DNA of 45,201 nt from IMG/VR virus record IMGVR_UViG_3300037424_000369, positions 1-45,201 of that record; one strand, written 5' to 3'. The translations under genes and the position numbers were made by a program. This DNA is from a virus (Duplodnaviria > Caudoviricetes). The notes below the pieces were generated by a model, which was not told where the DNA came from, did no database searches, and saw only the letters and a program-made list of their open reading frames with translations. Of this stretch, positions 1-45,201 are shown piece by piece. Positions within the stretch are counted from its first letter, which is position 1. Each line of letters starts with the position of its first letter.

Positions 1-185
1 TTCGAGAGCCAGGGCCGGAGAATCTAAGCAAGATTGCATAGGCGTTTCCGGTTCCGCCGCAGGCACCGCCTATATCAAGCCGATTGCGCTGGTCGACTGT
101 AACCGTACAGGCATTGATGATTGTACGGGTAAGAAATGATGCGCCGTGTCCCATGTTGGCAAAGCCCTGAGCCGGACAGGGAGTG
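1..185. repeat. Left copy of terminal direct repeat (circular overlap) matching 45017-45201
   Basis: 1-127 identical to 45017-45143; 128-185 differ from 45144-45201 at six positions (128,134,143,146,149,185). Confidence 0.97.
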
Positions 186-808
186 ATGGTACAACTATCG
201 AATTTAATATCGTGCGTTCCGCTTGTCGAATAAGCATCAACCACCACGACCGCGCCGTCATAATTGCAACGGTTTGAGAATCCCTGCGAATTACTGGTAA
301 AGATGCACCGACTAAACGATATATTATAAACGCCCGAACCGCCCTTATCGTAAACGCAATTGGCATTGTCGCCAGTAACCACGACCCTCAAATCTTGAAA
401 GAATATATCGTGCGGACCGATTGACGATTGCTGTTGAAATTGAATACCCTTGCATCCATCGGGAATTGTATCGTTAGTCGCCACGTGAAGGAGTACGCCG
501 TTAATTACCCTGATGTTGTATGAACTTGACGCGAAATAGAAACCGTAATAGCTATCGCCATTGTTAGAGCCAAAGGCTATAGTATCGCCCATCAGATTAA
601 AGACGATATCGTGGCCGGTGAAATTGATGCCGCTGCCAGTTCCGGTAACTTTGGTCCCGTTGACAATAAGTGTCTCAGAATAGGCCGTGCCCGTCTGATT
701 GGCGGTATATGGCAATGACGATATGGTCGTGGTCGTGCCCCACGCCGCACTCAAATTGAGTACGATTGCACTCAAAATGAGAACGGTTATTCTGAAAACT
801 TTATCCAT
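1..808 (-). CDS. 5' part of a 717-aa secreted beta-helix/FN3-like protein that continues across the circular junction into 45016..43671 (missed by ORF track)
   Basis: Hand translation from ATG at 808 is open to position 1: MDKVFRITVLILSAIVLNLSAAWG-TTTTISSLPYTANQ...CPAQGFANMGHGASFLTRT, in frame with the 43671..45170 ORF. N-terminus has basic n-region, hydrophobic h-region and A-W-G cleavage motif. Confidence 0.9.
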   Translation of the reverse strand, partial: MDKVFRITVLILSAIVLNLSAAWGTTTTISSLPYTANQTGTAYSETLIVNGTKVTGTGSGINFTGHDIVFNLMGDTIAFGSNNGDSYYGFYFASSSYNIRVINGVLLHVATNDTIPDGCKGIQFQQQSSIGPHDIFFQDLRVVVTGDNANCVYDKGGSGVYNISFSRCIFTSNSQGFSNRCNYDGAVVVVDAYSTSGTHDIKFDSCTITPCPAQGFANMGHGASFLTRTIINACTVTVDQRNRLDIGGACGGTGNAYAILLRFSGPGSR

Positions 809-1008
809 AATCCCAATACTATTAATGCTAACCCCCATGCGCCCACTAACATATTGCGCCAGTTTTCCAACTTACGTACGCGACCATTCTGGTTTTCAAC
901 CAGTCCCTTGGTTTCAGAAAGCATGGTTTTGATTGTCCGAATATCTGCCCTGAATTCTCCCAAGTCCTCTGCATAGGGGCAGTTGATTCTTTCGTGTTCG
1001 TCAGCCAT
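787..1008 (-). CDS. Small membrane protein, coiled-coil plus C-terminal TM helix (holin/XhlA-like phage family)
   Basis: 73 aa, QNGRVRKLENWRN followed by hydrophobic MLVGAWGLALIVLGLWI; AAGGAG RBS upstream. Confidence 0.6.
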   Translation of the reverse strand: MADEHERINCPYAEDLGEFRADIRTIKTMLSETKGLVENQNGRVRKLENWRNMLVGAWGLALIVLGLWIKFSE

Positions 1009-1016: not shown

Positions 1017-4000
1017 TTATCGCCTACCGCTACGGTTGCTGTTTGAGGTTTTTGAGTACGTGTTTGTTGAAACACCCAAAAAGTTTAACGGACTTGCTAT
1101 CGAAACAGTTTTTATTCCTCCACTTTTATAGGCATCTTTAATATCTTGTAACACCATAGGAGTAACAGCACCCAACATCGCTTCTGATGGAGTGATTTCA
1201 TCACCAACCATATCCTTGCCCATAAGCAACGAATAGGGCAATGTTACTGATGGAGCAAGTTTGTAGGCCGTGAAACGATAGAACATTTCTATCGGGTCCC
1301 AATTCTTTCGGTCCTCTGGATTTTCTATGCCATTAATAGTTCTGGCAACCAACCTCATCGGTTGTTGCATACCAGCCCATATATCTACTCTTGTATCACC
1401 AAACTTTATCTTGCCCCAATCAGGGTCATCGGGGTCGGATATGTTCACATCGAGTCCGGCCATTTTTGCAAGTCCTAATGCCATTGTACCAACCGTAAGC
1501 ACACCAACCATATCCTTGGCAATCGCCACACGAATCCTTGGTTCTTTGAAATACTTAAACATCATATATGGTGTTTGTATTCTACTAACAGAGAACCGAG
1601 GAGCAAAAAAGACCGTAGAGAGTGCGTTTGCCGAAGATGCCAAACTGCCAAGATTGCCTCTGCCAGATGCCACGTTTACCCAATCAGCCCACGCCTTTAG
1701 TTCGGCAGTAGTAGCATTGGGATTGGCCTTTAGAAATTCATCAAACACAGACGAGCGCAAAAGATTAAGGTGCGTAGCCATTTGCCGATTAGATGCCTTG
1801 ATTACTTTCCCAAATACAGGAGTCTTTTCGACAAGGTTAGCCATGAACATTTCTTCTCTGGCATTTATCTTGCCATCAAGTTCAGCCAAATACAGGCCTG
1901 CCCTATCTCTCAAATATTGAGTGGGGCTTGTGCGAATAGCATTATCAATCTGGTCTGCGGTATATTGGCTAAAAAACGACTTGAACGACTTGGCAAATGT
2001 TTTAATGGCCAAGGCTGGTCTGCCTGCCGAAAGCACAAAACCCTGCCTAAGCGTAGCGGACATATCAGCAGTAGCTTTTAATGTTCTGGCCGTATTTACA
2101 ACTTCAATACCAACTTTCTTAACTGTCCAAGGTTGTTGGTCCCTAATGGCCTGTCTGATTTTACGCTTTGCCACACGCAGTTCTACTTGTTTACGTTCAA
2201 GGTCAGGTGGCAGTTTTTTGATGGTTTTTTCTTCTGGTATTTTGAAATCGCCAGTTCTTAGTTGCTCATTAAGGTCGGCCAACATATCTTCCGTGTGCAT
2301 GGTCTTACGTAAATCAGATATTTTAGCCTTCATATCTTTGAGTTGTTCGGTTTCTATGGGTTTGTTCTTCCGTAGATTCCTATAGCCATTATCGAGTTGG
2401 TCTTGGAGTTTATTGATGGTGGTAAGTGCTTTCTCAAGACGAGACGGAGCAATGCCCGACTTATAGGCTTCTCTACGCAACTCCTTTAGTTTATTTTGCA
2501 GAACCCTAATCTCAAGCGGATTAGGAGACCTGCTCTTAGCTCTTTCAAATATTCCGTTCTCGGCGTTCTCAATATCCACAAGTAGTTTAGATTGTTTTTT
2601 GATTTGTGCAATCTTTTTCTCTGTGGCAGTGCGAAACTTACCCTGACGATTAGGGTCTTTGGCAATAATAGACTTATAGATGTCCCTCTCGGAAAGTTGG
2701 GGCAAATCGGCCTTAACTAACTTAACCACTTCGTCAAGAGTTAGTGCGCCCTCTTTGATGTAGTTGATTGCGAGTTTACCAACAAGATATGCACCCTCGG
2801 CGGTTACCCCCGTGACATCGTTTACCCGATAACCCAACTTAGCCAAGTCTGCTTTAATTTGTTTGCGTTGATTGTAAAGGTCTACTTTGGCCTCTGCTGT
2901 TCTCTGCCGTATCTGAGATTTTTGAGTTTCTCTTTTAGCCACAAGCTCGGCTTGAAGTCTCTCCGACTCCTGTAAACTGGCCTGATGTTTAATGTCAAGT
3001 TCGTTGTACTGTTTTTCAAGATTGGCATATTCATCCGCCATCTTTTGAAACTTAGTTATTTCTTCTGGTGTTAGCTTGGCACCCTTGGATACCTGTGCCC
3101 TTTGTACTATACTTGCAAGGTCGTAGTTTTCGGCATTAATCATCATGCGCCGAATAGATAAAGCACGAGCCGTTTCACGACCAGACATATCAGATGCTTC
3201 GGTTAGCTTGTCTATGTGGTCAAGAATAGTATTAGACCTTTGGCGTTCAATCTCTATGGCCTTTTCATCACCCTTGGCGATAAGGTCATTTATAGATTTA
3301 ACGCTCTCGTTATATTCGTTTTTGAGTTCGGCGGCTTTTATAACCATTCCGGCGTGTTCTTCTTGCGACACCATACGCTTAGAAGATAACACTTCATCGG
3401 CGGTAGATAATGCAGATTGGTCTAACTTGTCTTGTTTAGCCCTTTCGAGGGTATTAACCCACGTAGTTTTTTCGGTAGGGTCGAGTTCGTCAATGCCAGT
3501 ATTTCTGCGAATGGTTTCAATCTCTACCTTATTAAGCCCAATAACATTCTCGCCACTCGGCATTTCCGTTGTCATCTTTGCGGGGATGTCAACAGGTTTT
3601 AACTCACTCGGTTTAATTTCGGCGGTTTTAACCTGTGCGGTTTCAAGGGGGGTTGGACCAAACGCACGTTCCGTACCAAGTTCGGGTGTCCACTCCTTCG
3701 GTTTAATTTCGGCGGTTTTAACCCGTGCGGTTTCAAGGGGGGTTGGACCAAACGCACGTTCCGTACCAAGTTCGGGTGTCCACTCCTTAGACTTCTGTGG
3801 TTCTGCTATTATAGGAGGAGGGGGAGTAGGTAATGGTTGTCTCTCTGCACTTAATCCTGTGGTTGCTTGTTCGAGTTGGTCTGCCAACGCAGGAGAAACA
3901 GGTTTGCGAGTATGATAATCTACCCAATTACCTTCGGGTTCACGATGTAGCAGTTGAGATACCCCACCGCTTTTAACGCTTACAACATCACCCTGAACTC

Positions 4001-4664
4001 CTTCAAGTTTAGGCATTACCTTAATATCTGGAGTCTTGATTTCGTTTTTCAAGGTTTCCATTGTATATTTAGCAGACTTTGGTAGCCCCGCTAATTTAGC
4101 TCCACCAAGGGTAACTAATGGTGCTTGGGTCATGCCAACCACGTTTTCGGGAGAAGTAACTTCACCCCAAGATGGTCCACCCTTAGTGCCCTCTGTACTT
4201 AATTTAATTCGTGCGGCTAATTTAGCCCAGGGGTCAACCAATGGCTCGGCAATATCTTTTTTAAACTCTTGAGCAGGCGCATCCATTTCTTCAGGCGACA
4301 CATCCTGCCCCGTAATAACCTTATAGGCGTTGGCAAATGCTTTTTTATCAATATCGTATAACTTCTTTAAGAACATAGGTGCACTCGCTACACCCTTAAT
4401 TGCGGCGATACCAAGGTTGGTAATATATGGAACATGAGTGGGGGTAGTCGGCACATTAGGCACAGACCAATCCTTAGACATTACCTCTTGGTATTTATCC
4501 CAAATGCCCCCAGACGTAGGCGTAGCCTGTGCGCTACTTGACATCACAGATTGTGATTTCAAGTTTGAGGTCGCAGGTTGCGACTTTAAGGCTCTGTTCT
4601 CGTCCATCTTTTTCCTGAGTCTATTCAACTCAAGTTTTTTGCGGATGTCGTTAATGTCTGGCAT
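1017..4664 (-). CDS. Large internal virion / DNA ejection protein (1215 aa)
   Basis: Long alpha-helical K/E-rich protein, last of three genes following the nozzle gene, the usual place for podovirus ejection proteins. Confidence 0.65.
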   Translation of the reverse strand: MPDINDIRKKLELNRLRKKMDENRALKSQPATSNLKSQSVMSSSAQATPTSGGIWDKYQEVMSKDWSVPNVPTTPTHVPYITNLGIAAIKGVASAPMFLKKLYDIDKKAFANAYKVITGQDVSPEEMDAPAQEFKKDIAEPLVDPWAKLAARIKLSTEGTKGGPSWGEVTSPENVVGMTQAPLVTLGGAKLAGLPKSAKYTMETLKNEIKTPDIKVMPKLEGVQGDVVSVKSGGVSQLLHREPEGNWVDYHTRKPVSPALADQLEQATTGLSAERQPLPTPPPPIIAEPQKSKEWTPELGTERAFGPTPLETARVKTAEIKPKEWTPELGTERAFGPTPLETAQVKTAEIKPSELKPVDIPAKMTTEMPSGENVIGLNKVEIETIRRNTGIDELDPTEKTTWVNTLERAKQDKLDQSALSTADEVLSSKRMVSQEEHAGMVIKAAELKNEYNESVKSINDLIAKGDEKAIEIERQRSNTILDHIDKLTEASDMSGRETARALSIRRMMINAENYDLASIVQRAQVSKGAKLTPEEITKFQKMADEYANLEKQYNELDIKHQASLQESERLQAELVAKRETQKSQIRQRTAEAKVDLYNQRKQIKADLAKLGYRVNDVTGVTAEGAYLVGKLAINYIKEGALTLDEVVKLVKADLPQLSERDIYKSIIAKDPNRQGKFRTATEKKIAQIKKQSKLLVDIENAENGIFERAKSRSPNPLEIRVLQNKLKELRREAYKSGIAPSRLEKALTTINKLQDQLDNGYRNLRKNKPIETEQLKDMKAKISDLRKTMHTEDMLADLNEQLRTGDFKIPEEKTIKKLPPDLERKQVELRVAKRKIRQAIRDQQPWTVKKVGIEVVNTARTLKATADMSATLRQGFVLSAGRPALAIKTFAKSFKSFFSQYTADQIDNAIRTSPTQYLRDRAGLYLAELDGKINAREEMFMANLVEKTPVFGKVIKASNRQMATHLNLLRSSVFDEFLKANPNATTAELKAWADWVNVASGRGNLGSLASSANALSTVFFAPRFSVSRIQTPYMMFKYFKEPRIRVAIAKDMVGVLTVGTMALGLAKMAGLDVNISDPDDPDWGKIKFGDTRVDIWAGMQQPMRLVARTINGIENPEDRKNWDPIEMFYRFTAYKLAPSVTLPYSLLMGKDMVGDEITPSEAMLGAVTPMVLQDIKDAYKSGGIKTVSIASPLNFLGVSTNTYSKTSNSNRSGRR
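3608..3787. repeat. 90-bp tandem duplication (2 copies) within the ejection protein gene
   Basis: 3608-3697 vs 3698-3787, one mismatch (3634 T / 3724 C); encodes KEWTPELGTERAFGPTPLETA(R/Q)VKTAEIKP twice. Confidence 0.95.
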
Positions 4665-6088: not shown

Positions 6089-6385
6089 TTAGCCCCCTAT
6101 GACAAACCACATTACGTAAGACGTATCTGCGTTGTCACTTGATTTTATTGTGAACTTGTCTTTATACTTCATTGTCGTTACGCTGTACTTGTTGGCCGCA
6201 GTATCGTTTATCGGAGTAATCATTACCGCCAACTCCTTGTACACTTTCTTGAGCACAACCATAACTTCGCCAGATGTCAGCTTCGATTTGCCGTACTCAA
6301 TCATAGTATCACGGCCATTGATAACTTCGGGAAACAGTTTCTTTAACTGTCCCACATCTGTCGGTGATAAACTTGTCTTTGCCAT
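6089..6385 (-). CDS. Small virion protein, beta-rich C-terminus ending V-M-W-F-V-I-G (tail-fibre/H-type-lectin-like end)
   Basis: 98 aa, ...FTIKSSDNADTSYVMWFVIGG; follows nozzle gene. Confidence 0.45.
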   Translation of the reverse strand: MAKTSLSPTDVGQLKKLFPEVINGRDTMIEYGKSKLTSGEVMVVLKKVYKELAVMITPINDTAANKYSVTTMKYKDKFTIKSSDNADTSYVMWFVIGG

Positions 6386-6387: not shown

Positions 6388-8499
6388 TTACCTTATTGGA
6401 GTTCCCCTATTCTCGTAGTACACCTTCGCCTGTAGTAACGCGAACTTACTCATCTGGTCGCTACCTATAAAGCGTATCGAAGCCCTCGTGCCATTAGCCC
6501 CGTTCTTTATGCGGAACTTCTGGCGTTTAACTGGTAATGTTGAATCGTAACTTATCGTCTGTTGAAATGCTGTGTCGGTACTCGGCGCACCATCCACTAT
6601 CAGTTCCAACATTCCAACCGTTCCTCGAAACATATCGTTGCCAATATGCTCAAAGTAAATCTCAACTTCCTTGAACGACTTTTCTTGGTTGCCGTCACCA
6701 CAGGCCGAATCTATTGTGCGAACCTCAAAATCCGGCTGAACAGCACCATAGTTATACGGAGTTCTACCAAGTATGTTGACATAAACACCATCGAAGAATA
6801 CAAGGTTTTCACCCGACCTGTCCGGTATCTCCGGCAAGAACGCCTGTATGCCAGTCCATCTTGTCCATGCACCCGTAGGAATATGGTAGGCATAGGCAAC
6901 AATATTTCTGCTGTAATTTGGAGAATCAATTTCGCTTGGGTCAAATACTACGTCACTGCCATCGTTACCACCACCACCACCACCATCATTCGGTGGAGGT
7001 GTCACAGGATAACTGATGCCCTCTATCGGTTCTGCCCATACCGCATCATCGCCATAGTCGGGAGGCGGAGGTGGCGGAGGAGGAGGTGGCGGAGGCGGTC
7101 CATCACCACCGGGTTCGAGCCAATCGCCACCAGGCCCATCGCCATAGCCATGACCCCAGATAGGTGCCCAATGCACAGGTGGAAATGTCGTAGGCAATGG
7201 TGACTCTGATATTGGACCGGTTGTTACGCTTCTGCCTAAAACATTAGGAGAATACATCCAAAGCACGTAGTAATCTTTGTGCAGACTTGCCCAATAGTTA
7301 CTACTCTCGGGTATACGTACTGTTCTTGATATATCTTGAAACGAACCGCCGTTATACATCACCACACGCTTTTGGCTGTCTAAGAATATGCAACGGTTAG
7401 AGTCAATAGTTTTAATAGTCTTGTGCCATGTGGTGCCGTAGGTAGCCGACAGTTCACGGTAGTCATAGTTGGCGACCTGACTTCCCCAGAAACCATAGAT
7501 ACGATTCTTCTTGAAGATTAAAAGTACATCGCCCACAGGGGATAGGGCCGTTAATAAGTCGGGGTCGCCTACAGGAATAGAGTTTAATAAGGGCCAGTTC
7601 TCATAAGAGAATTGACTTGTGTAACGAAGAATGGATGAGTCTTTAGTGAATCCCCAACCCGTACCATTGTGGATAGTCATACATTCAAGGTCCTCTGGAG
7701 GCAGACCGTATTGAGTTACGTCTAAAACTTCTTGGGTAACAAGGGTAGTATCAGAAACACTATCGCTCGAAGTAGTAATATTGCCATTGATAACTCCGAC
7801 AAGATAATACACAAGAGGATTAGTTTGGCTTGTTTCGGAAGCATTGGCCTTGGTGCGGTAGAGGTATTTATAGGTTCCCTCACACGTAGGTATATGTCTT
7901 ATGCCGATAGCCCCAGATAATCCAGTACCTATGGTAACTTCCATAGGTTCGCTTGGTGTTGACCTAAACCCATTTTTGTCGGTAACAATAAGTAGATAGT
8001 GATGCAAGCCCTCATCGGGACCAGTACCACTTGGTGGACTGGGGATGTCAAAAGCCATTAGTGAATTATCTATTGATTTCCCCATCAGCCTTGTATCTAA
8101 ATTAATATCCATCACAGAGGGCTTGATACCGCCAACAAAGTATATCTTGTCCTCATCGGGGATGGCGAACTTAGACTTCAACGGAACCGAGAGATTCTTC
8201 GCCTGACCTACAGAGTTGAGATACCTGCTTATTGGCAAGGCCTGTGTATCACCAATAAGAACATAGGGCCAATGGCTTGTCTTATAGTCTTGAAATCGGA
8301 CAAGCCAGTTGCCCCTGAAATCAGACGCAGGCGACATACGCTTGGTAACGGGAGGTCTCGACGAAACTCCCCCCATAGGCGCACGGCTGAAGTCTGCGTT
8401 CTCACAAACACGCAATGCTTCAGGTGGCGCAGCGTCACTACCAAGCCCGTCCATCAGCCCCCCCGCAAATGAGGGAAACAGGTAATCAATGCGTGGCAT
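6388..8499 (-). CDS. Tail nozzle / packaged-DNA stabilisation protein (beta-propeller type) with Pro/Gly-rich insertion
   Basis: N-terminal FAGGL...CENADF motif, YLYRT and LLIFKKNRIY motifs, C-terminal KSFKEVEIY; follows adaptor genes. Confidence 0.7.
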   Translation of the reverse strand: MPRIDYLFPSFAGGLMDGLGSDAAPPEALRVCENADFSRAPMGGVSSRPPVTKRMSPASDFRGNWLVRFQDYKTSHWPYVLIGDTQALPISRYLNSVGQAKNLSVPLKSKFAIPDEDKIYFVGGIKPSVMDINLDTRLMGKSIDNSLMAFDIPSPPSGTGPDEGLHHYLLIVTDKNGFRSTPSEPMEVTIGTGLSGAIGIRHIPTCEGTYKYLYRTKANASETSQTNPLVYYLVGVINGNITTSSDSVSDTTLVTQEVLDVTQYGLPPEDLECMTIHNGTGWGFTKDSSILRYTSQFSYENWPLLNSIPVGDPDLLTALSPVGDVLLIFKKNRIYGFWGSQVANYDYRELSATYGTTWHKTIKTIDSNRCIFLDSQKRVVMYNGGSFQDISRTVRIPESSNYWASLHKDYYVLWMYSPNVLGRSVTTGPISESPLPTTFPPVHWAPIWGHGYGDGPGGDWLEPGGDGPPPPPPPPPPPPPDYGDDAVWAEPIEGISYPVTPPPNDGGGGGGNDGSDVVFDPSEIDSPNYSRNIVAYAYHIPTGAWTRWTGIQAFLPEIPDRSGENLVFFDGVYVNILGRTPYNYGAVQPDFEVRTIDSACGDGNQEKSFKEVEIYFEHIGNDMFRGTVGMLELIVDGAPSTDTAFQQTISYDSTLPVKRQKFRIKNGANGTRASIRFIGSDQMSKFALLQAKVYYENRGTPIR

Positions 8500-8888
8500 T
8501 AGTCTTTAGCTAACCATTCGATTGTGTAGGTTGCCGCATACGTGCCCGTACCAGTAAATATGAACCTGATATACCGACCGAACCCAATCGCAGTAGCAGG
8601 TGTAGCCTCAGTAATAGCGGCGGTATGGTTCGGTATAATGTCCAAGTATGAATCTGTCGATGCATCTGATACGTCTGCATGACTCCATATAATTATCAAA
8701 TCATGCCATGTAGAGTTATCGTTTGATGTCTGGATTTTCAAAGAGCCTGTGTTGGTTGAACCAGTACAAGTTCCGAACTTTGTGGAAATAATTAAGTCTT
8801 TGTATCCACTAACATCAATGGGACTACCTGTGGTTGTTGCAGTAATCGCTGATTGCGATTCTCTGCCATTTAGAAAAGAAACGGACAT
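8499..8888 (-). CDS. Small beta-sandwich (jelly-roll-like) virion protein
   Basis: 129 aa, SPIDVSGY...KIQTSNDNSTWHDL...GRYIRF pattern typical of small phage structural proteins; no signal peptide. Confidence 0.55.
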   Translation of the reverse strand: MSVSFLNGRESQSAITATTTGSPIDVSGYKDLIISTKFGTCTGSTNTGSLKIQTSNDNSTWHDLIIIWSHADVSDASTDSYLDIIPNHTAAITEATPATAIGFGRYIRFIFTGTGTYAATYTIEWLAKD

Positions 8889-8899: not shown

Positions 8900-9544
8900 T
8901 TAATTAGCGTTGCCGGAAGTACCCGCAGGTGTGGATACTCCAACAATGCCTTTTTTGCTGTATTGTGCTATGCCTTCTTTGGTGTAGCGCATTATCTCCT
9001 GCACCAACCATTGAGCTTTCGTTAATTGGTTATCTTTAATAGCTATCTCTTTAGCCACATAATACGGAACCACCATCTGATAATCGTCTGGAATAACAAG
9101 AGAGTCCGTCAACGCCGTCAGCGCATCCGGTAGTTTCGCTATCAGAACATTGAGTGTTGCGTTATCCGGTAACGATGGTATTGATGGATATATCGAAACA
9201 TAGTTGCCACGATACGCCCAGAAGTAAGGGTAATCGCTATCTGCTGCATGAGGTATGGCATCGGGGCTTATAGGTATCAACGGCCTTACGCCAACGTCAT
9301 TACCATAGTTGTACTCAATACTCAGAACCGCAGACGCACCAGTAGGCGGTGAATACCTGACGGTACTGGCAAGCAAGGTAATTGTACCCCAAGATTGGTA
9401 GCACCCCGATTCGGCAGCCACCCACTTCTGGGCATCGGATGTTAGCTTGATTAATCGTGCCGCTGAAATTACATTAACATCGGTCGATTCTTCCAGCAAG
9501 TCATGTACCTTGAGCACAACGTCATTTACTGTATAGAGTGCCAC
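8900..9544 (-). CDS. Head-tail adaptor-like protein
   Basis: 214 aa, LIKLTSDAQKWV, YFWAY, IYP, LVIPDDYQMVVPYYVA pattern of podovirus adaptor family; position after capsid. Confidence 0.65.
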   Translation of the reverse strand: MALYTVNDVVLKVHDLLEESTDVNVISAARLIKLTSDAQKWVAAESGCYQSWGTITLLASTVRYSPPTGASAVLSIEYNYGNDVGVRPLIPISPDAIPHAADSDYPYFWAYRGNYVSIYPSIPSLPDNATLNVLIAKLPDALTALTDSLVIPDDYQMVVPYYVAKEIAIKDNQLTKAQWLVQEIMRYTKEGIAQYSKKGIVGVSTPAGTSGNAN

Positions 9545-16805: not shown

Positions 16806-18201
16806 TGATTATTCCTTGCAATCTTCCTGTGAGCTTGTCGTATTGATACTTCGGCGCAGGTCGATTACTTGTCGGCCTGATACCCGAGTTAATGATGTAT
16901 CTTAAACAGTCCATAAAATCGTCGTCACGCTTGTGGATTCTTTCGCTGTATGATTTGCTTTTGTCGCTTTGCACATCAGAGAACATATAGTGCCTAAACT
17001 CATCAATTATTCCTATACAATCCCTGAAAACATATAACTCTGGAGGTATAGAATCCAACAGTTTACGAACCTCGTAAATCCCCGATTCCACCTTCTTGTT
17101 TGCGGGTATCAACGGAAACCCTTCATCTGCGAAAACATCAAACGGATTCTGGCCCGTTATATTGTCCTTCATATTCAACGCAGGGTCGCCTATACGTGCG
17201 TACAGTTTATCAGGCCCGTTAGCTACCAATACACGAGTTACTATATCTGGAATAATTCCACCACTACGTAATTCTCTGTAGACAACCCACGAACCTCTTG
17301 GGATTTTATAATAATCATAATCAGCCAATGCCGCCCAGACTACGGAAGTATTCTTGGCAAGATGTGGGTCAACGGCCACAACCTTCTTCCAATCTTTAGG
17401 AATATCGAAAGGCTCAATCACGTGGCGCGATTCTTTGAATTGCGGATAAATCAGGCCGTGAAGCTGTACGAACAATCCCTGCTTGCGGATTTTCTTTTCT
17501 TCTTCCGTCAGTCCGGCCAGAACTAAATCTTTATCAACTTGCTTTAGATACGGATTCAGGTCCATATCCATCAGGAAACACTCTATGCCGTTAGTACCGT
17601 TCTTTTCCCATATCTCCTTGTAAACCCAAGTCAAGCCTTTAAGCGGAGTCATCGCCATAATGATAGAACCACCCCTGTCTATGGTCCTGACAAGGCATCC
17701 TTTGTAGATTTCTTCTCTGGCTTCTTCGTCAAGGTAGACAAGGTCAACGTCCATACCTTCAAACTTCTCATCATCCATTTCATAGTTCTTGAAATTGATA
17801 ATGTTTCCGTTTTTCAACTGCCAGAAGTCCACAAAACCACGCTGAATCTTCTGTTCCTTGGTAATAAACCCCTTGGGCATCCATTTCTTGAGCTTGGGAA
17901 CGATAATATCACGAGTATACTCGTTTGATTCGGACGCAACCCAGATAATACTGCCCGCATTTCTGCGAACTGGTCGCTGGCGGTACTTCTGACTGCCAGT
18001 AGCCCACATTATGACCTCGGCACACGCCGCTTCGGTCTTTCCTGACCTGTTGCCGCCAAATAAACTTCTGATTTTAGCGGTAGATTGGTGAAATGGTAAC
18101 TGTCCCGTATGAGGTTGATACCATTTCACACCCTCTGCCCGCATTTGCTCGGCTAATCTATCGCCAAGATTGGATACTTTTACAATTATCGGTTCGGTCA
18201 T
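16798..18201 (-). CDS. terL: Terminase large subunit
   Basis: Walker A GGNRSGKT, Walker B LVYLDEE, motif III AMTP, nuclease VAVDP and DDDFMDCLRY. Confidence 0.95.
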   Translation of the reverse strand: MTEPIIVKVSNLGDRLAEQMRAEGVKWYQPHTGQLPFHQSTAKIRSLFGGNRSGKTEAACAEVIMWATGSQKYRQRPVRRNAGSIIWVASESNEYTRDIIVPKLKKWMPKGFITKEQKIQRGFVDFWQLKNGNIINFKNYEMDDEKFEGMDVDLVYLDEEAREEIYKGCLVRTIDRGGSIIMAMTPLKGLTWVYKEIWEKNGTNGIECFLMDMDLNPYLKQVDKDLVLAGLTEEEKKIRKQGLFVQLHGLIYPQFKESRHVIEPFDIPKDWKKVVAVDPHLAKNTSVVWAALADYDYYKIPRGSWVVYRELRSGGIIPDIVTRVLVANGPDKLYARIGDPALNMKDNITGQNPFDVFADEGFPLIPANKKVESGIYEVRKLLDSIPPELYVFRDCIGIIDEFRHYMFSDVQSDKSKSYSERIHKRDDDFMDCLRYIINSGIRPTSNRPAPKYQYDKLTGRLQGIING

Positions 18202-19430
18202 TTACCCTTGGTTCCGATAATCCGAATGTCCAATACACGAGTATCAATCGTACTGTCAATCCAAGCCGACAAAGTATCGGTACAGTCAGCCTCGTACTGC
18301 AAGTATCCGCCGTAATCACGAGACTTCATTTCAACGGTATCGCCGATTGCACCAACGTGCGCTGTTCTAAGCCAAAAATCAGTCCATGCCGTAGTATCAA
18401 CATCCCGATGAAATAAACTATCCATCCGAACCATGATGCCAGACCTATCTGTATTTAGGTACAAACTAATCGAATCAGCAGTCTGGTTGTTATCCCAACC
18501 AAGCAACTTGTACTGTACCCTTAATGCCGTATATCCCGAAATAGGAATCTTATCAGTCTTGAAATTATCTCCGGTCTTGGTAAACGACCAGCAATAATGC
18601 CATACATCATCGCCCAGATAACCCGTCCGATCATTTATGGCATAGTATGAAGGCTTGTATCCCAATAACGCAGGAGCCGTGTAGGTCAACGTATTTGACG
18701 TATCGCATACATTCTGCGTATTCGCCAGATGATAACCCAACACACGAATATAATATTGTTGACCAGGTTCGAAATTAATCGCAGTTCCGGTAGACGCAAT
18801 CCTCAACGGTGAGAACATCATCAAGGTATCAGGCGAACCCAATCCCGCAGAGTCTCTACCAACAGCACAGTTATTCGCCCAAACCGCCCTCACGGGAGCC
18901 AATGCCCACGAGTCCGAATTGCGCTTCTTGTACTGTAATGCTATCTTGAGAAGTGTGGAATCAGCCGTGTACCACGTATTCTGTATTCTCAGATTATACC
19001 GTAAACTATCCACAGCCACACTGTCCGTAGTCGCTGTAATCACCTGATTAATCGCAATAGTCGTACACGCCACAGGAGTCGTAGAAGCAGTTGTCAACGT
19101 AGTCCCCGTAGCTCCCGTTCTCGTGGTATAGTTGAACCGCCAGTAATACGAGGTCCCATTATATAATCCCGTAATAACTGTCGTGTCGCCTTGAGCATAG
19201 GCCGCTGGAATAGTCGGAGTATTCGCACTCCTTGTCACGGTCGTACTACCAGCCACCCAATAATCAAGTGTCCACGTTTTCAACGTATCGGGGGTCGCTA
19301 TCCCAACCAATCTCACAGTCAAGCTTCTGCTCGTGCTGTCTATGCACGCAGTCGTTACAGCAGAATTGGCCGTTTCTACCATGCTAACCATAGCAAAAAC
19401 AACCAAAATAGAAAACAAGAATTTCTTCAT
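18198..19430 (-). CDS. Secreted (Sec signal) Thr-rich beta protein, FN3-like domains plus C-terminal jelly-roll-like domain; coupled to terL
   Basis: MKKFLFSILVVFAMVSMVETANS-A signal peptide; ITGLYNGTSYYWR and FEPGQQYYIRV are FN3-type strands; stop overlaps terL ATG (ATGA at 18198-18201). Confidence 0.75.
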   Translation of the reverse strand: MKKFLFSILVVFAMVSMVETANSAVTTACIDSTSRSLTVRLVGIATPDTLKTWTLDYWVAGSTTVTRSANTPTIPAAYAQGDTTVITGLYNGTSYYWRFNYTTRTGATGTTLTTASTTPVACTTIAINQVITATTDSVAVDSLRYNLRIQNTWYTADSTLLKIALQYKKRNSDSWALAPVRAVWANNCAVGRDSAGLGSPDTLMMFSPLRIASTGTAINFEPGQQYYIRVLGYHLANTQNVCDTSNTLTYTAPALLGYKPSYYAINDRTGYLGDDVWHYCWSFTKTGDNFKTDKIPISGYTALRVQYKLLGWDNNQTADSISLYLNTDRSGIMVRMDSLFHRDVDTTAWTDFWLRTAHVGAIGDTVEMKSRDYGGYLQYEADCTDTLSAWIDSTIDTRVLDIRIIGTKGK

Positions 19431-38041: not shown

Positions 38042-38170
38042 AACACTCCTTTAATGGGGTGGTGGGCAGGTTGATGGCATTAACTCAACCATCTCTCGGG
38101 CTACCCCATGCCCCTTGCCCCCTGCCCACCTTATTATGAAGGTGGCCACAACGACCATCTTCTACTCTCT

Positions 38171-38207: not shown

Positions 38208-38241
38208 TGCGAGGTGGGATGGGAGAAGTGGGGTGAAAGGA

Positions 38242-38871: not shown

Positions 38872-38880
38872 GACACACCC

Positions 38881-39024
38881 CTACTTATTAATTTTAATTG
38901 CAAAGGTTGTCTTGATAAACTTCCAGACTTTGACTTCGATTTCGATGAACCGTTTAACCGCAGGTAGTTCACCAATAATCGGTGCATAGGTTTCGTCCAC
39001 GTTTTTGATTTTGAATGATGCCAT
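38881..39024 (-). CDS. Small hypothetical protein (47 aa, not in track)
   Basis: GAAGGA RBS; MASFKIKNVDETYAPIIGELPAVKRF... Confidence 0.55.
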   Translation of the reverse strand: MASFKIKNVDETYAPIIGELPAVKRFIEIEVKVWKFIKTTFAIKINK

Positions 39025-39027
39025 GAT

Positions 39028-39207
39028 TTATCCTTCTTTCTTGGCTTCTGTTTTCATGCCGGAACGCAGGGTTGCAAAACCCGTACCGTTAAGGATTCCC
39101 ATAATAGTAATATAGGTGGTCTCGTCAATATATCCGAGAGCCTTTGCGATGGTAGCAATTCCCATGCCAACGGCCACCAGATACGTTTTCCATCCAGTCA
39201 ACTTCAT
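39028..39207 (-). CDS. Holin-like small membrane protein (59 aa, not in track)
   Basis: GGAGG RBS, ATGA overlap with endolysin; MKLTGWKTYLVAVGMGIATIAKALG...IMGILNGTGFATLRSG. Confidence 0.7.
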   Translation of the reverse strand: MKLTGWKTYLVAVGMGIATIAKALGYIDETTYITIMGILNGTGFATLRSGMKTEAKKEG

Positions 39208-39572
39208 ACATCCTCCAACTCATAGTGAGGCATATCGCAAAATTTCTTCCGCGCTCCACCCCACGTTACATTTATGTTTAATTGTTTGGCAACTATTAAT
39301 ACCCAATTAGCAAACTCTCGGATACCGTCGAAACCTTTCCAAAGAATCGGGTACGGCATAACGTCAACCGCCAGAGACGGCACCTTATTATGTTTACTGT
39401 CGGGCCACCTGACCTTACTGTATAATGGATATGCCTTTTCCTGTTCCTCTTTGGTGCGATGTCCGCAAATAATTGCACAGTCCCTATCCTTGATTACTTC
39501 TGTGAACAATCGGATAAGGTCGGGATGGCACGTATTGAGCCGTGCCATTGACCTGTTTGAGAATTGTGGCAT
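39204..39572 (-). CDS. Endolysin, M15 family (L-Ala-D-Glu peptidase-like)
   Basis: CGHRTKEEQ, SKHNKVPSLAVD, WGG, DMPHYEL; TAATG overlap with upstream gene. Confidence 0.92.
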   Translation of the reverse strand: MPQFSNRSMARLNTCHPDLIRLFTEVIKDRDCAIICGHRTKEEQEKAYPLYSKVRWPDSKHNKVPSLAVDVMPYPILWKGFDGIREFANWVLIVAKQLNINVTWGGARKKFCDMPHYELEDV

Positions 39573-41884
39573 TATCTCACCCACCAGTTAGATGCAGGGG
39601 CTACTCTGTTACGAGTGTACCAAGGACTATAACCCTGTTTGGTGATTACAAAGTCGTATTTCAATGAGTCCACGCCAGACTTAATGCTTGCCGATGGGAA
39701 GATGTCAAGGTAGCCGTAACCAGCAGAATCCGTTATTGCGAAGTGCTCTCTCGGTACTATGGCTACGGTATCAGCACCGGAAATATATGACCACGCTTTG
39801 TTGTTGGTTCTTGGTATTACCCTGAATACTGCGCTACCCACAGAGTCACCCAACACATCCCACGTATGAACGTAAGCACGTATCAGGGCAGGGTTAGATG
39901 GCGAACTGATTGTATTGGCAGTTACCGCTATGGTATCCTTAATATCAGCCGTGAATGTCGTAGTCTCTGGGATAGTGGATTGCGTGTAGTTGGGCATGAA
40001 GGCATAACCGTAGTAGGTTCCATCGTCTAATGCGAACACAGCCCAACCATCGGAGTTGGTAGCGTCGTAGTAGTTGGAGCCACCACCGCTTGCCTGTAGT
40101 CTCACGTTGACACCCTGAACACCACCAGTAGATGACTCAACATATATAGAACAAGCATTGGCACCAGAGCCAGTATCGCCAAGTCCCGAAAAATCATCTT
40201 TGATATTATTGTCATCGCCGGAGGCACCACTATAATCGCCGAGTTTGTTCATAATGGAATAGGTAAGGTCGAGTAGTACGTTTAAGACCGAGTTGGTATC
40301 TTCCCATGCCGCGCTGACGTTTGGTGCGCCTATATAACCCTTAATCGAATCGAGCGTAGTTCTCATGCCCAACACCCAATCGCCGATTGAATTATCGGCA
40401 TACTCCCAAGGTGAGCTTGTATTCGGCGAACCGAGTAAGCCAAGTAGCGAGTCGGCTTTATTCCATAGACCCTTCAAGGTATCAGCCCATACGCCGCCTA
40501 TGCCAGCCAGTGTTGAATCAATCTCGGTCTGTGTCCAGTACTGGCCTTTATCTTTCCATACTTTCATCACAGTACCAACGGGAGGATATGAGTTGAAGCC
40601 ATCTTGTACGTAGACGAAACCGGAATCGGCGTCATAATCGGTTATTGTGGCCGACACAACCTCACCAAAGGCGTAGCTGTATGATATAATCTGTCCGTCA
40701 AGCGTTCCGGTTGGCGCAAGCAAGCTGGTCTTGAATTGGTATGACGCATTATTGGGCGAATCCAACACCGTACAGGTATCGAAGTCCGAGCCGTAAGGCG
40801 TGTAGAGATTGCCAGCGGCCCAAGTGTTTAGGGTAATGGTGTCGAGTACACCACTGCCACCCATATTCGACATCAGCCATGCGCCAATTTTAGAGGTATC
40901 AATTATGGTGGTATCGTTTTCTCCAAATATGGCATCGACCATTTCTGACCGTGTGGCCGTATTGCCAACGTTCAGGAGCGTATCGCCGGACTCAACCGTA
41001 TCGGTTGGCGTAAACACTAATTCTTCATGGCCCTGTAACAAGGCGAGAATCGAAGTAGTGTCGGTGCTGCCTACTCCCAAGGCGTCAATATCCGCATCAA
41101 TACCATCGAGACCGTCGCCGTTTGTGTAATCATAAAGGCTGAGTATATAATATCCTATATCTCCAGCGTTTTCCACGTAAGCACTTAAGTCGAATTTCAG
41201 CATTTTGCCAAAAACATTAATATTAACAACCGATGAATCCAACGCGCCATCTTTGAAATCTTCCGGTGCAATAGTATCATCGGTAATGGTTAGGGTGTTG
41301 ACATCGACTGCATCGTCAACCTGAGCGTTGGAAATCGTGCCCCCCATTGTATCGTAATTGGCGGCATTCTTATTGAGCGAATCTGACATTGCCCCCATAT
41401 CGCTCATTGTCGCCGTCGAATCGAACATAACCCTGGCGGATTGCACATAATTAGAATCATTCATTACGTCTCTAACGCTGTCTGCAACCGCCTTACCTAT
41501 CGCAATTCTTGTCGCGCTTTCACAAATAAATGTCCCTGATTTCGGCGTTCCCCATCCAGTACCTCCGTTTTTATAGCCAACCGATGTATAGGTGTAATTT
41601 CCTATTCTCGGAGACGCCACGATAACCCGAATGGCATAGTTTGGGAATTTAGTGCCCCCGAGATCAAGCGTCTTGATTGTTGCCGCATTGTAGGCTCCTT
41701 TTAGGGCATAGACGGAATCGCCGACCGGAGATATGACGGCAACGGCAACGGAATCGCCTGATGCCAGAGCCACGCCGTTGATGTTGCCAACGGAGTCAAT
41801 CAGGCTCAGCGGCACATAGAGCGTATCGGCCCCATAGGCGCCGACTGCCCATGTTAGCAATAAAAAGATAAGTAGCTTTTTCAT
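39572..41884 (-). CDS. Secreted (Sec signal) 770-aa multidomain protein, putative virion appendage
   Basis: MKKLLIFLLLTWAVGAYG-A signal; acidic helical repeats; C-terminal tandem beta-sandwich motifs (DATNSDGWAVFALDDGTY; ITDSAGYGYLDIFP). Confidence 0.75.
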   Translation of the reverse strand: MKKLLIFLLLTWAVGAYGADTLYVPLSLIDSVGNINGVALASGDSVAVAVISPVGDSVYALKGAYNAATIKTLDLGGTKFPNYAIRVIVASPRIGNYTYTSVGYKNGGTGWGTPKSGTFICESATRIAIGKAVADSVRDVMNDSNYVQSARVMFDSTATMSDMGAMSDSLNKNAANYDTMGGTISNAQVDDAVDVNTLTITDDTIAPEDFKDGALDSSVVNINVFGKMLKFDLSAYVENAGDIGYYILSLYDYTNGDGLDGIDADIDALGVGSTDTTSILALLQGHEELVFTPTDTVESGDTLLNVGNTATRSEMVDAIFGENDTTIIDTSKIGAWLMSNMGGSGVLDTITLNTWAAGNLYTPYGSDFDTCTVLDSPNNASYQFKTSLLAPTGTLDGQIISYSYAFGEVVSATITDYDADSGFVYVQDGFNSYPPVGTVMKVWKDKGQYWTQTEIDSTLAGIGGVWADTLKGLWNKADSLLGLLGSPNTSSPWEYADNSIGDWVLGMRTTLDSIKGYIGAPNVSAAWEDTNSVLNVLLDLTYSIMNKLGDYSGASGDDNNIKDDFSGLGDTGSGANACSIYVESSTGGVQGVNVRLQASGGGSNYYDATNSDGWAVFALDDGTYYGYAFMPNYTQSTIPETTTFTADIKDTIAVTANTISSPSNPALIRAYVHTWDVLGDSVGSAVFRVIPRTNNKAWSYISGADTVAIVPREHFAITDSAGYGYLDIFPSASIKSGVDSLKYDFVITKQGYSPWYTRNRVAPASNWWVR

Positions 41885-41885
41885 G

Positions 41886-42458
41886 TTATCTATCTCCGGT
41901 TAATAAGTTTCGCCGTCTTGCGCTTGTGGCTGCCGACTCAGTGTAATATACCCGCACCGCCAGAAAATCGAACGATATGCTTGTCACCAAAGCATCGCCG
42001 ATTGAACAAATAATTACGCTGAAATTGTCCGCGTTGATATGAACAGGACCAAATTTAGAGGTGTCGCTGACATCTATATAACGTATGCTGTCAATGGCAT
42101 CTGCGAAATTGGCAAAGCTCCACGTGCTGCAATTGGGTCTTTCAAAGAGCGGAACGGCCACCGTTACAGGCTCGTTACAATCACCGCATACATAGGTTGA
42201 TTGGTACAGCACCATCAGGCTGTCGACCGTTGCGGTCAACGGGATATCGGCCCCGTCGAAGGTGTGCACTTTCAGCGTATCGGTATCGCTTGCGCCGGTA
42301 TGCAGCGCATAGCTCCCGTTGTCGCTCAGAATATTAGTGTCGTCGGTCCATCCGAGGGACGTAACCTGAGTCGGTATTTTTAATATAGACGCACCAGAGG
42401 CGTTTTGCATTATAAGCAGACATAGGCCCGCCATTAGATATAATCGTTTTATAGCCAT
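41886..42458 (-). CDS. Secreted (Sec signal) 190-aa beta-sandwich protein
   Basis: MAIKRLYLMAGLCLLIMQNASG-A signal; ...FDFLAVRVYYT then short tail SARRRNLL. Confidence 0.7.
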   Translation of the reverse strand: MAIKRLYLMAGLCLLIMQNASGASILKIPTQVTSLGWTDDTNILSDNGSYALHTGASDTDTLKVHTFDGADIPLTATVDSLMVLYQSTYVCGDCNEPVTVAVPLFERPNCSTWSFANFADAIDSIRYIDVSDTSKFGPVHINADNFSVIICSIGDALVTSISFDFLAVRVYYTESAATSARRRNLLTGDR

Positions 42459-42775
42459 TCAACCTCAAACCCCGTGACGTTCTCGGCTAAAACCGTGTAG
42501 CCCGATTCGCCATAGAGCAGAATTGTATTATTGACAAACAGGATATTGCCCTGCCTGTCCAGTTCCAATGGGTTAGGCTCCAGCTCGGGGATAATCACCC
42601 TGAACAGTGTCTTGTCATCAATTAGAATCGAAAAGCAGTCCACGTTTTCCGCAACTGGATGATATGGCGAATTGCAATAGGTGTATATTACATTCTCTTG
42701 AAAGTGAATATACTCGTCCGTCTCAGCGGTCATTGGAAACGGATATCTATTGGGAATTACTATCGTGCATTTCAT
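42449..42775 (-). CDS. Hypothetical acidic protein without signal peptide, inside the secreted-protein cluster
   Basis: 108 aa, AAAGGG RBS. Confidence 0.6.
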   Translation of the reverse strand: MKCTIVIPNRYPFPMTAETDEYIHFQENVIYTYCNSPYHPVAENVDCFSILIDDKTLFRVIIPELEPNPLELDRQGNILFVNNTILLYGESGYTVLAENVTGFEVEWL

Positions 42776-42797
42776 ATTGAACCCTTTCGTTAAATGG

Positions 42798-43664
42798 TTA
42801 TCGGTTTAAGAGTCCGGTTCGATAATTAATATATTTCGTGTGAACGTACAACGAATCGCTGTCTTGCAATGTAGCAGTCCAGAGACGTACCCACACCCAG
42901 CGATAATCAGGGTTGGCGGGACGGGTATTCAGGGCTGTGATATCTACGGTATCCGGCGAGGCGTGAGTACTTTTGGCAAAACGAGTTGCCCCAGAAAAGG
43001 TGTTGTCGGTATCGACCCAGATAATAGACGAATCGGGCGGGCCAGTATAAACATATCGTATCTTTGCCGACGATGTTGTCGAATCAATTTGCGTCAGAGT
43101 ATCAATGGTAATCGAGGCCGCTGTCGTTGACCAGTGCGCAGCCAACGCCATGCGTATGCCAGGGGTAGCTATATTAGACCAGTTGGCTTGAAAGAGATTA
43201 AACGAATCTTGCGATGCAGCAGATGCCAAAGACGTTGTGCCGATTCCAGGTGCCGATGACACTCCAGTATAGATAACATCAAGAGTCAGGGTATAAACCG
43301 TATCAGTGGTTAATGCAAAACTACAAGGGATAACCTCTCTTTGCATAGTATTGTTGGTAGTTAACGTCAAAGTATCCGAAACAAACTTTTGCTTTGCAGG
43401 ATTGCCGCCCGCGTAACTGTATATTCCGATTACCAGTTTAGATGCTGCACTATTATCGTGTATCCACGCTATCAGGGTATCTATTGTTTCGGTTCCGTCC
43501 GAGGTTCGGGTTAGGGCCGAAACCCTGTTACCATAGCAAGCATTGGTGTCGACGGCTGTGCCAACTCCAGTGAACGCCGAATCCAACCCAAAGTACCCAT
43601 CGGCCAGAGCGACACTCGGCATCGCAAAAATTGTTAAGATTATCAGTAATCGTTTCATACTCAA
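42798..43664 (-). CDS. Secreted (Sec signal) 288-aa two-domain beta protein
   Basis: MSMKRLLIILTIFAMPSVALA-D signal (A-L-A); KLVIGIYS...P motif; FN3-like C-domain; AGGAG RBS. Confidence 0.75.
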   Translation of the reverse strand: MSMKRLLIILTIFAMPSVALADGYFGLDSAFTGVGTAVDTNACYGNRVSALTRTSDGTETIDTLIAWIHDNSAASKLVIGIYSYAGGNPAKQKFVSDTLTLTTNNTMQREVIPCSFALTTDTVYTLTLDVIYTGVSSAPGIGTTSLASAASQDSFNLFQANWSNIATPGIRMALAAHWSTTAASITIDTLTQIDSTTSSAKIRYVYTGPPDSSIIWVDTDNTFSGATRFAKSTHASPDTVDITALNTRPANPDYRWVWVRLWTATLQDSDSLYVHTKYINYRTGLLNR

Positions 43665-43670
43665 TATCTC

Positions 43671-45201
43671 CTATTTTAGGTACATCATATATTGACCTTC
43701 AACCGTATCGGGATTCACGGGTTCGGCATCGGTTACAAACGTTGAATCTGCCGACACAGATTTGTTGTGGCTGGCATCCTCGGAACGTACCCTATAATGA
43801 TACGTAGAACCTGCAAGCAAATTAATTAAATCAACAATATGCGAAGTGCGATAACCCGCTACGGTTTCATTAGAACCATAGCTGGCCGTCAATCCATAAT
43901 TAACCGTATCTGTTGCCGCCTCGTCTGTGGTCCATGTAATACGGGCGGTCGATGAAGTAATTAGCGATACCGCAATATTGGAAATAACAGGCGGGGTTTC
44001 GTCGGCCTCGCCAGAAGTTGCACCAAGCGTCAGGGTATCGGTAAACGAATCCCAATCGACAGTCAGCGTTCCCGTATCGGCATCTGCACCCTTACTGGCA
44101 ATCAACGTAAAAGGATTGAATCCCGTCGAATCTCCTGTGTGCGTTCGATGTTCAAACCAATATGTTACGGCTCCGGTGGCTATGCCGTTTTCGTTTGTCG
44201 TGGTCGTCAATACCGTTGCGCCATAGTTATTTTTGGCTATGACATCGGCACTCGGTACGGGTTGGGAATTGGAACCGAGTACGAGAATTGAAAGTGTTCT
44301 TTGTAATCCTGTTTCGTCATTATGGTTGGCGTCTGTGGCCCACGTGATGTTAGAATCATAAACTCCGGTGCCATAAACAAAATCTTTGTAATATAAATCG
44401 TTGCCAAAACTGGTCTTGGTAATATCCCAATAGTTATGTCGAAATGTCGACGTTACCGACAATCTTGGGCTAATCCAATCCAACGAATCGGCCCACAACC
44501 TCAAATAATCACCGCCGCAGTTTGCGCCACCCGATACCATTAAGAAGGCATCGCTGTAAAAATGATTCTCGTAGATTTTGGCCTCGCCCTCGTAATCGGT
44601 CGAGTCACCATAACTACAGTCTAATACCAAGGCCCTTGACGTTACACCACCCGACGAACCGAACTGACTGGCCGATATGTAATTATCGTGGTAACTGACA
44701 TTGGTTCCGGGGTCGCCGCCTATAACAAGACCAACAATTATATTCTCATAGGAATCCGTAGCGGCCACCGTATCGCCGGTTGTAACGTAACGATTATTGT
44801 AATCGTCCATATTGTATATCTGCCCGCCCGAATCAATACTGCGGGATTTACGAGCATAACAGGTTCTATATTCGGGACGCACAGAATTACCGCAATGGAC
44901 ATCAACATCGTTCCCTGAAACTATTATCGGCGTTGAGATGGTACCCATTGGGTTTTCGGTCATTATTCCCTCGCCGCCTTCGTATGTAGTGCCGGAGCGA
45001 ATATAATTATTCGTAATTCGAGAGCCAGGGCCGGAGAATCTAAGCAAGATTGCATAGGCGTTTCCGGTTCCGCCGCAGGCACCGCCTATATCAAGCCGAT
45101 TGCGCTGGTCGACTGTAACCGTACAGGCATTGATGATTGTACGAGTAAGGAATGATGCACCATGCCCCATGTTGGCAAAGCCCTGAGCCGGACAGGGAGT
45201 A
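43671..45201 (-). CDS. 3' part of the 717-aa secreted protein: right-handed beta-helix, Ig-like domain and FN3 domain
   Basis: ITNNYI, VSGNDV, YHDNYI beta-helix repeats; TTNENGIA Ig-like motif; DETPPVISNI...ARITWTTDE...VNYG...LLAGSTYHYRVRSED FN3. Confidence 0.85.
   Translation of the reverse strand, partial: TPCPAQGFANMGHGASFLTRTIINACTVTVDQRNRLDIGGACGGTGNAYAILLRFSGPGSRITNNYIRSGTTYEGGEGIMTENPMGTISTPIIVSGNDVDVHCGNSVRPEYRTCYARKSRSIDSGGQIYNMDDYNNRYVTTGDTVAATDSYENIIVGLVIGGDPGTNVSYHDNYISASQFGSSGGVTSRALVLDCSYGDSTDYEGEAKIYENHFYSDAFLMVSGGANCGGDYLRLWADSLDWISPRLSVTSTFRHNYWDITKTSFGNDLYYKDFVYGTGVYDSNITWATDANHNDETGLQRTLSILVLGSNSQPVPSADVIAKNNYGATVLTTTTNENGIATGAVTYWFEHRTHTGDSTGFNPFTLIASKGADADTGTLTVDWDSFTDTLTLGATSGEADETPPVISNIAVSLITSSTARITWTTDEAATDTVNYGLTASYGSNETVAGYRTSHIVDLINLLAGSTYHYRVRSEDASHNKSVSADSTFVTDAEPVNPDTVEGQYMMYLK
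45017..45201. repeat. Right copy of terminal direct repeat
   Basis: Matches 1-185 with six transitions, all after the first 127 bp. Confidence 0.97.

Follow-up and report, generated by a model that had tools for sequence, protein, structure and literature searches.

Why should the tail-fibre slot of a tailed phage be filled with genes for proteins that carry secretion signals? The question is raised by the phage genome of IMG/VR record IMGVR_UViG_3300037424_000369 (Duplodnaviria; Caudoviricetes), whose whole stretch of 45,201 nucleotides is called the window here, where a cassette of leader-bearing genes lies between the ejection genes and the endolysin gene. Tailed phages are taken to build all their parts in the cytoplasm, and a phage gene that encodes a signal peptide is currently annotated as a host-modifying moron. 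A sequence-only reading of the window had proposed that the phage exports its adhesins or spikes for maturation in the periplasm and that virions pick them up at lysis. Our analysis likewise favours exported, probably glycosylated appendages that are docked on finished particles at lysis, a reading that we consider likely. The genes concerned are as follows.

1..808, minus strand: N-terminal part of a 717-amino acid (aa) protein, likely a spike or adhesin, with a homologue in the 616-aa leader-bearing protein of phage L154
43671..45201, minus strand: remainder of the 717-aa protein, with Ig-like and FN3-like domains at its C-terminal end
45017..45201, no strand: terminal overlap with bases 1-185, the assembly overlap of a circular genome
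42798..43658, minus strand: 286-aa leader-bearing protein (13 D-S/T motifs vs 5.1 expected), no family match
42449..42775, minus strand: 108-aa leaderless open reading frame (ORF) within the cassette
41886..42458, minus strand: 190-aa leader-bearing protein whose C-terminal tail is basic and rich in Arg
39572..41884, minus strand: 770-aa leader-bearing, mosaic, fibre-like protein with a C-terminal two-Ig module (31 D-S/T motifs vs 13.6)
18198..19430, minus strand: 410-aa leader-bearing beta-sandwich/FN3-like protein, overlapping the terL start by 4 bases (17 D-S/T motifs vs 6.7)

The window is a complete circular genome of a short-tailed phage (podovirus) of about 45 kb on one contig, because its ends overlap by 185 bases (179 identical, 6 differences); once this overlap is removed, the 717-aa ORF is open from 808 across the junction to 43671 with no stop. 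All four signal-peptide genes that had been noticed in the late operon, and the fifth coupled to terL, were present, although the gene given as 288 aa encodes 286 aa from an ATG with a ribosome-binding site. Leaders were called with our own hydrophobicity rule (best 11-residue N-terminal score after a basic n-region) and not with SignalP. By this rule, the five proteins (717, 286, 190, 770 and 410 aa) scored 2.55-3.05 and were separated from the other 47 of the 52 ORFs scored, all at or below 1.73. A basic n-region, a hydrophobic h-region and a small-residue cleavage-like site, as in Sec/signal peptidase I substrates, were found together in 5/52 ORFs, all of the late operon. Note that a 59-aa holin-like ORF outside the 52-ORF set has a hydrophobic start as well. 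The same scan showed no internal membrane segment in the five proteins, and a search of the coding strand for a lipobox was negative. Export of the five by the host Sec system is thus predicted with high confidence.

We then asked whether the leader-bearing proteins carry a modification motif. The mature parts of the five proteins contain 84 D-S/T motifs (Asp followed by Ser or Thr) vs 40.3 ± 5.4 by chance (10,000 shuffles, none as high, maximum 61). The reversed S/T-D order was at 0.82 times expectation in the five, and D-S/T in 20 other late genes at 0.70 times. N-glycosylation sequons were considered and rejected (1.02 times). A, I, L, M, T or V, the canonical third residue, follows in 58 of the 84 motifs, and D-S/T-hydrophobic is described as the O-glycosylation sequon of non-cytoplasmic Bacteroidota proteins (PMC12871550), the available part of that report not showing it for Zixibacteria or for phage proteins. 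This motif excess is the one line of evidence that points to the glycosylation proposed earlier.

The family of the 770-aa protein allowed the coupling of leader and motif to be followed. Its last 227 residues match 239 proteins, and the match lies at the C-terminal end in the 150 of these that were listed. Among 152 matches examined, 87 were leader-bearing, 27 were full-length and leaderless, 37 were unclassified or fragmentary, and 1 was dropped as unrelated. D-S/T stood at 2.22 times expectation (range 1.51-3.44) in the 87 leader-bearing homologues and at 0.87 times (0.51-1.40) in the 27 leaderless ones, a set chosen by eye with the ratios in view and with the 37 + 1 other matches omitted; the 37 gave 2.08 times. 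In a less biased check on homologues from IMG/VR contigs, 0/39 had a leader (1/39 by a relaxed rule) and D-S/T was at 0.93 times, with leaders on 4/105 of their larger neighbours. Leader and sequon excess therefore come and go together across the family. Since the leaderless homologues, which belong to other tailed phages, have structural neighbours in the 4 loci annotated (genes for tail terminator, tape measure, capsid, terminase or portal), the same module likely also exists as a cytoplasmic virion protein. The 770-aa protein itself and A1, used as queries, gave no match in the IMG/VR scans. Disulfide formation, which had been offered as a reason for export, was rejected as a driver family-wide: the mature chains of the five contain 12, 2, 4, 3 and 6 Cys, and the Cys number was even in 47/87 leader-bearing homologues, with no bias toward even numbers.

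The slot itself is retained in related phages. A leader-bearing cassette including a 770 homologue stands ahead of the endolysin-position gene in five other phages (G001, G002, G011, L154 and L155), so that the conserved synteny and signal retention expected of such a system were observed. G001 and G002 are syntenic close relatives (capsid 64-65% identical) with three and two (401 and 740 aa) leader-bearing genes, respectively, between the ejection and lysis genes, the last being the 770 homologue in both. L154 and L155 have four each, including 770 homologues and 717 homologues (27-29% in L154, weak in L155); the 616-aa protein of L154 in the same slot aligns with the 717-aa protein at 27% over 258 aa (E 2e-15). 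Five are present on G011:C48, a circular contig of 42 kb from a Zixibacteria-set bin. The cassette is mosaic across relatives: no homologue was found for the 286-aa protein, nor for the 410-aa protein in a protein search or in G001-G003, and slot-mates in relatives weakly match CBM96 and beta-helix families. Elsewhere in the genome, G289 has a different leader-bearing gene ahead of terL, and G011 and G153 have one after the portal gene. INPHARED gave no match. The 108-aa leaderless ORF (42449-42775) was not found in relatives and may be a chaperone or an unrelated insert. In L154 (11527-12000) and L155 (12518-12994), leader-bearing proteins of 157/158 aa with outer-membrane beta-barrel-like ends, as judged by eye, follow the lysis genes.

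Homologues in bacterial genomes proved not to be ordinary host genes, because they follow capsid-cassette genes in 57/57 bacterial loci with 4 kb of upstream sequence. These came from a GTDB genome scan with 119 confirmed stretches, 80 of which were kept (40 titled Zixibacteria, 21 Ignavibacteria, 16 unclassified and 3 other). The chromosomal cassette comprises terL, a protease-like gene, capsid phrog_3922 and a decoration gene. A leader was found in 56/72 homologues by the strict rule and in 68/72 by the relaxed rule. In most loci, the preceding gene also encodes a leader-bearing protein; under a loose pattern, 35/53 have a basic tail, and so does the 190-aa protein of the window. A weak homologue of that 190-aa protein is encoded immediately upstream of the 770 homologue in cassette locus L085 (phmmer E 5e-7). 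Loci L012-L091 (e.g. L065, L070 and L089) are such capsid/terminase cassettes, gene-transfer-agent-like, mostly of Zixibacteria and flanked by ordinary host genes; the 770 homologue is among the one or two leader-bearing genes at their end. The window is not one of these cassettes, having a phrog_1357 capsid, replication genes and circular ends. Recent capture of the 770 gene from a host cassette was rejected: in a quick midpoint-rooted tree of 41 rows (18 cassette rows and 14 others sampled at random), the window protein groups with phage proteins (support 92), apart from leaderless rows, and the 18 cassette rows lie on one side of a branch (support 94). A host glycosylation system is not established, because secreted dockerin-type host proteins beside the Zixibacteria cassette reached only 1.20 times expectation for D-S/T.

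The strongest argument for a virion fate in this group comes from core-tail parts of more distant relatives. PF24175, searched in the Zixibacteria set of 285 genomes from the phylum of G004, gave 17 matches in 13 genomes. The second adaptor had a leader in 7/13 (G011, G094, G125, G153, G163, G175 and G208), the other six having leaderless adaptors, and the nozzle had one in 6/6 of these genomes where the next gene is on the contig; note that the G125 adaptor and the G011 nozzle fail the strict rule and were counted by eye. G289 likewise has leaders on both proteins. D-S/T was at 2.92 times expectation in seven leader-bearing second adaptors and at 2.21 times in seven nozzles, compared with controls of 1.14 times in first adaptors and 1.20 times in the window nozzle and its 16 homologues. 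Among the seven nozzles, five match phrog_511 like the window nozzle, and the other two rest on position. In two of these podovirus contigs, the needle-like protein also has a leader and a D-S/T excess. The contigs are as follows.

L172:8329-12251, L203:6367-10076, L204:6563-9686, L205:8768-12173, L207:1656-4948, L210:538-2895 and L200:7875-11052: podovirus contigs with leader and D-S/T excess on the second SU10 adaptor and the nozzle

Adaptors and nozzles have no sensible place other than on a particle, which argues that leader-bearing proteins reach virions in this group. G163 is linked to the window by its large ejection protein (36% over 921 aa) as well as by terL (32%) and capsid (27%). 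The window nozzle profile matched 1/285 genomes, at an unrelated-looking fibre ORF, and hhalign of the window nozzle against the G011 nozzle was not significant.

How the 770-aa protein might attach was addressed with an alignment-based model, which was confident only for residues ~573-770, where it shows two sandwiches; the Ig-like motifs noticed earlier are thereby borne out. The FN3 motifs were weak, at the C-terminus of the 717-aa protein (PF00041 E 2e-4 and PF16656 E 3e-6, both under the cut-off; Tencon matches), and no Pfam or PDB match to a beta-helix was obtained for that protein. For the first sandwich of the 770 module, the matches were to domains of pilin and carboxypeptidase type, with Z up to 11. 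The last domain alone was aligned in only 2/50 structure-match rows: chain a of 8keg, the neck fibre gp82N of phage A-1(L) (Z 9.3, root-mean-square deviation 1.8, 88 aa), and, from the structure of the Ur-lambda tail tip (9e7m), the 94-residue chain Ta (Z 8.1, 2.4, 84 aa), which from its length we infer to be StfN 1-94. According to the available text of the two reports, gp82N fixes the A-1(L) neck fibre to the neck and has a pilus-like fold (PMC10966104), and StfN 1-94 forms a collar on the lambda tail (PMC12617516). In the Atlas, three viral clusters ranked first (0.92-0.94), followed by PF08400 (0.89), the family of the lambda Stf collar domain; the 770-aa protein had no Pfam match to PF08400. 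The prealbumin-like sandwich that serves as a fibre anchor in Stf and gp82N is thus shared, but those anchors are N-terminal in cytoplasmic proteins, whereas the domain here is C-terminal, paired with a second Ig domain and part of a leader-bearing protein. For the 410-aa protein, a viral cluster at 0.82 was the best Atlas match, a lead only, and the single-sequence fold was unusable (mean predicted local distance difference test score 37.5). A C-terminus copied from the 129-aa protein described below was considered and rejected (phmmer E 0.005 among 12 sequences, no BLASTP or profile support).

The rest of the minus strand shows what kind of particle such appendages would meet. It encodes terS, terL, an SU10-type portal, two glycosyltransferases, a phrog_1357 capsid and an SU10-type adaptor, followed by the 129-aa protein (phrog_5707), the putative nozzle of 703 aa (phrog_511), the K1-lyase_C protein of 98 aa, three putative ejection proteins without leaders, the leader cassette and the endolysin. 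Neighbouring features are as follows.

8900..9544, minus strand: second adaptor (SU10_adaptor), leaderless (PF24175 E 5e-11)
8499..8888, minus strand: 129-aa protein, leaderless, kept in close relatives (phrog_5707)
6388..8499, minus strand: putative nozzle, leaderless (phrog_511), named from its position after the SU10-type adaptor
6089..6385, minus strand: 98-aa K1-lyase_C protein, leaderless, short and needle/fibre-like, after the nozzle (PF24146 E 4e-9, above the cut-off)
1017..4664, minus strand: large leaderless protein, putative ejection protein (36% over 921 aa to G163)
787..1008, minus strand: 73-aa ORF with a C-terminal hydrophobic stretch (by hydrophobicity), immediately ahead of the cassette
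39204..39572, minus strand: endolysin of M15 peptidase type (phrog_465 E 4e-27), its start overlapping the stop of the 770-aa gene
39028..39207, minus strand: 59-aa ORF, putatively holin-like from its hydrophobic segments and position

Portal, adaptor and gene order are those of the Kuravirus SU10-type tail (PF23899 portal, PF24175 adaptor), with ejection genes and with no tape measure seen in the window by family and PHROG annotation of ORFs. The fibres of SU10 are cytoplasmic, whereas no long leaderless fibre gene was found in the window, as had been noted before, the 98-aa K1-lyase_C protein after the nozzle being leaderless and short. Several further observations were made on these genes. 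The second adaptor gene is duplicated in G002 (L003:8311-9608). The nozzle gene (6388-8499) has a poly-proline insertion around 7061-7100 that gives low-complexity DNA matches in many genomes. After the endolysin, 38242-39207 holds the holin-like ORF and a 209-aa gene kept in G001 and G002 (34-39%); no spanin lipoprotein was found in the window. Two leaderless glycosyltransferases and a possible methyltransferase lie in the head operon (14059-15006, 13556-14062 and 10382-11242), and a GT2-like gene after the capsid gene is retained in G001-G003 and G163; cytoplasmic glycosylation of the virion by these enzymes is possible. On the plus strand, 24477-25298 and 25402-26274 are two nearly duplicate genes in tandem; a short repeat inside each of them varies in copy number, and the first has no PHROG match. 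Promoter and terminator counts in the window were at chance level.

The host is likely a member of Zixibacteria or a related FCB lineage, because phage relatives lie in such bins, the nearest links of the large ejection protein (1017..4664) being phage contigs in Zixibacteria bins, and because the Gln rule is absent: none of the five leaders has Gln at the predicted cut, and 7/60 do in the cassette family. No CRISPR spacer link was found in the 285 genomes (window 1-20000 and 25300-45201; 2 candidates per genome scored).

What the data show directly are the leaders, the sequon excess, the conserved slot, the fold of the 770 module and the leaderless homologues; the mechanism, from export and signal cleavage through glycosylation to the time and place of docking, is inferred, as is the host. 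Head, adaptors, nozzle and needle-like protein would assemble in the cytoplasm, because they are leaderless. The five proteins would pass Sec, be cleaved, probably be O-glycosylated and wait in the periplasm until holin and endolysin action opens the inner membrane and particles meet them. They would then dock as fibres, spikes and decoration on the head and short tail finished in the cytoplasm, the 770-aa protein by its C-terminal Ig domain, with its variable, sequon-rich part remaining outside. Export is well supported by leaders kept in relatives and by the coupling of leader and sequon excess. A virion role is argued for indirectly, by the slot, the anchor-like fold, the leaderless structural homologues and the adaptors and nozzles of relatives.

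Several points weigh against this reading. D-S/T glycosylation is shown only in Bacteroidota, and the dockerin-type host proteins gave just the slight excess above; the leaderless set was selected as stated. No cultured relative was found. The anchor fold, as modelled, is a common prealbumin/pilin fold with middling Z of 8-9, a shared fold shows no function, known anchors are N-terminal and this one C-terminal, and most top rows are pilins and other cell-surface domains that match the neighbouring Ig domain. Two of the five proteins (410 and 286 aa) lack homologues in our searches. The leaderless adaptor, nozzle and needle-like protein of the window mean that a particle can be completed without export. 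No spacer ties the phage to a host, and binned phage contigs can be misplaced.

The best surviving alternative, though an unlikely one, is that the proteins are exported but retained by the cell, remodelling the periplasm or surface of the infected cell for phage exclusion or adhesion. The pilin- and S-layer-like folds that dominate the matches of the 770 module, the fixation of homologues in bacterial chromosomes and the leaderless core tail would fit it, and precedents exist. In the available text of PMC10769870, Bdellovibrio MAT fibres are mosaic, phage-fibre-like proteins behind a signal peptide, but they are chromosomal cell-surface adhesins outside a capsid operon. Porphyromonas gingivalis prophages have five Q-rule signal-peptide genes (PMC10367356; repeated in PMC10653852), which resemble ours as phage genes of unknown function using host Sec; however, they are read as host-surface modifiers, the accessible text of PMC10367356 does not mention a fibre slot, and the cuts in the window lack Gln at +1. 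On the other hand, the chromosomal homologues stay in a capsid and terminase cassette (57/57), the genes are late and abut the endolysin, the five proteins show neither internal membrane segment nor lipobox, leaderless homologues sit in structural modules, and a function at the cell surface is implausible for the leader-bearing adaptors and nozzles of relatives. Somewhat less probable still is a leader that keeps the proteins in the inner membrane, as an uncleaved or late-cleaved store or platform released onto particles at lysis without periplasmic maturation. Leader cleavage is a prediction, the G011 nozzle has a long n-region and the G011 adaptor a lipobox-like stretch; however, small-residue cleavage-like sites follow the h-regions, and a D-S/T excess that tracks the leader fits exposure to a periplasmic enzyme. 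It is very improbable that the proteins are set free at lysis, as diffusible depolymerases, lectins or decoys, and do not bind particles at all, since the conserved anchor-like C-terminal module with a mosaic middle is typical of fibres and the genome has no other long receptor-binding candidate, even though slot-mates weakly match CBM96 and beta-helix families and cassette content varies.

The textbook case of the P22 tailspike has no signal peptide, in the available part of the source (10.64898/2026.09.13.751334), and no described counterpart was found in any tailed phage; the literature on exported virion parts and Zixibacteria phages, covered through abstract openings with subscription journals mostly outside, gave no description of an export-then-dock route. 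The nearest likeness is the cultured Cellulophaga phage phi18:3 (KC821620), whose consecutive genes gp085-gp087 have leaders and are annotated 'structural protein, MS/MS' (3/13 proteins checked with leader). It differs in having no sequence match to the 770 module, Gln after the predicted cut, no D-S/T excess and a Bacteroidota host; this missing excess, and the contaminants that mass spectrometry of virion preparations can include, limit what it lends to our reading.

If true, export-then-dock would add a new step to phage assembly and give virions host-made glycans, and the annotation of signal-peptide phage genes would change. With about even confidence, we propose more broadly that, in phages of Zixibacteria and related hosts, virion assembly is divided between two compartments whose boundary can shift, particles being completed in the periplasm during lysis and leaving with host glycans. 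The window phage would export its appendages only, whereas in distant relatives all parts past the first neck ring would be exported; the capsid cassette that has been domesticated in these hosts would keep the same exported, host-glycosylated fibre. The window genome is useful as a half-way state, its 770 family offering leaderless and leader-bearing versions for comparison, and, by extension, the secreted products of the capsid cassette in Zixibacteria may be particle appendages.

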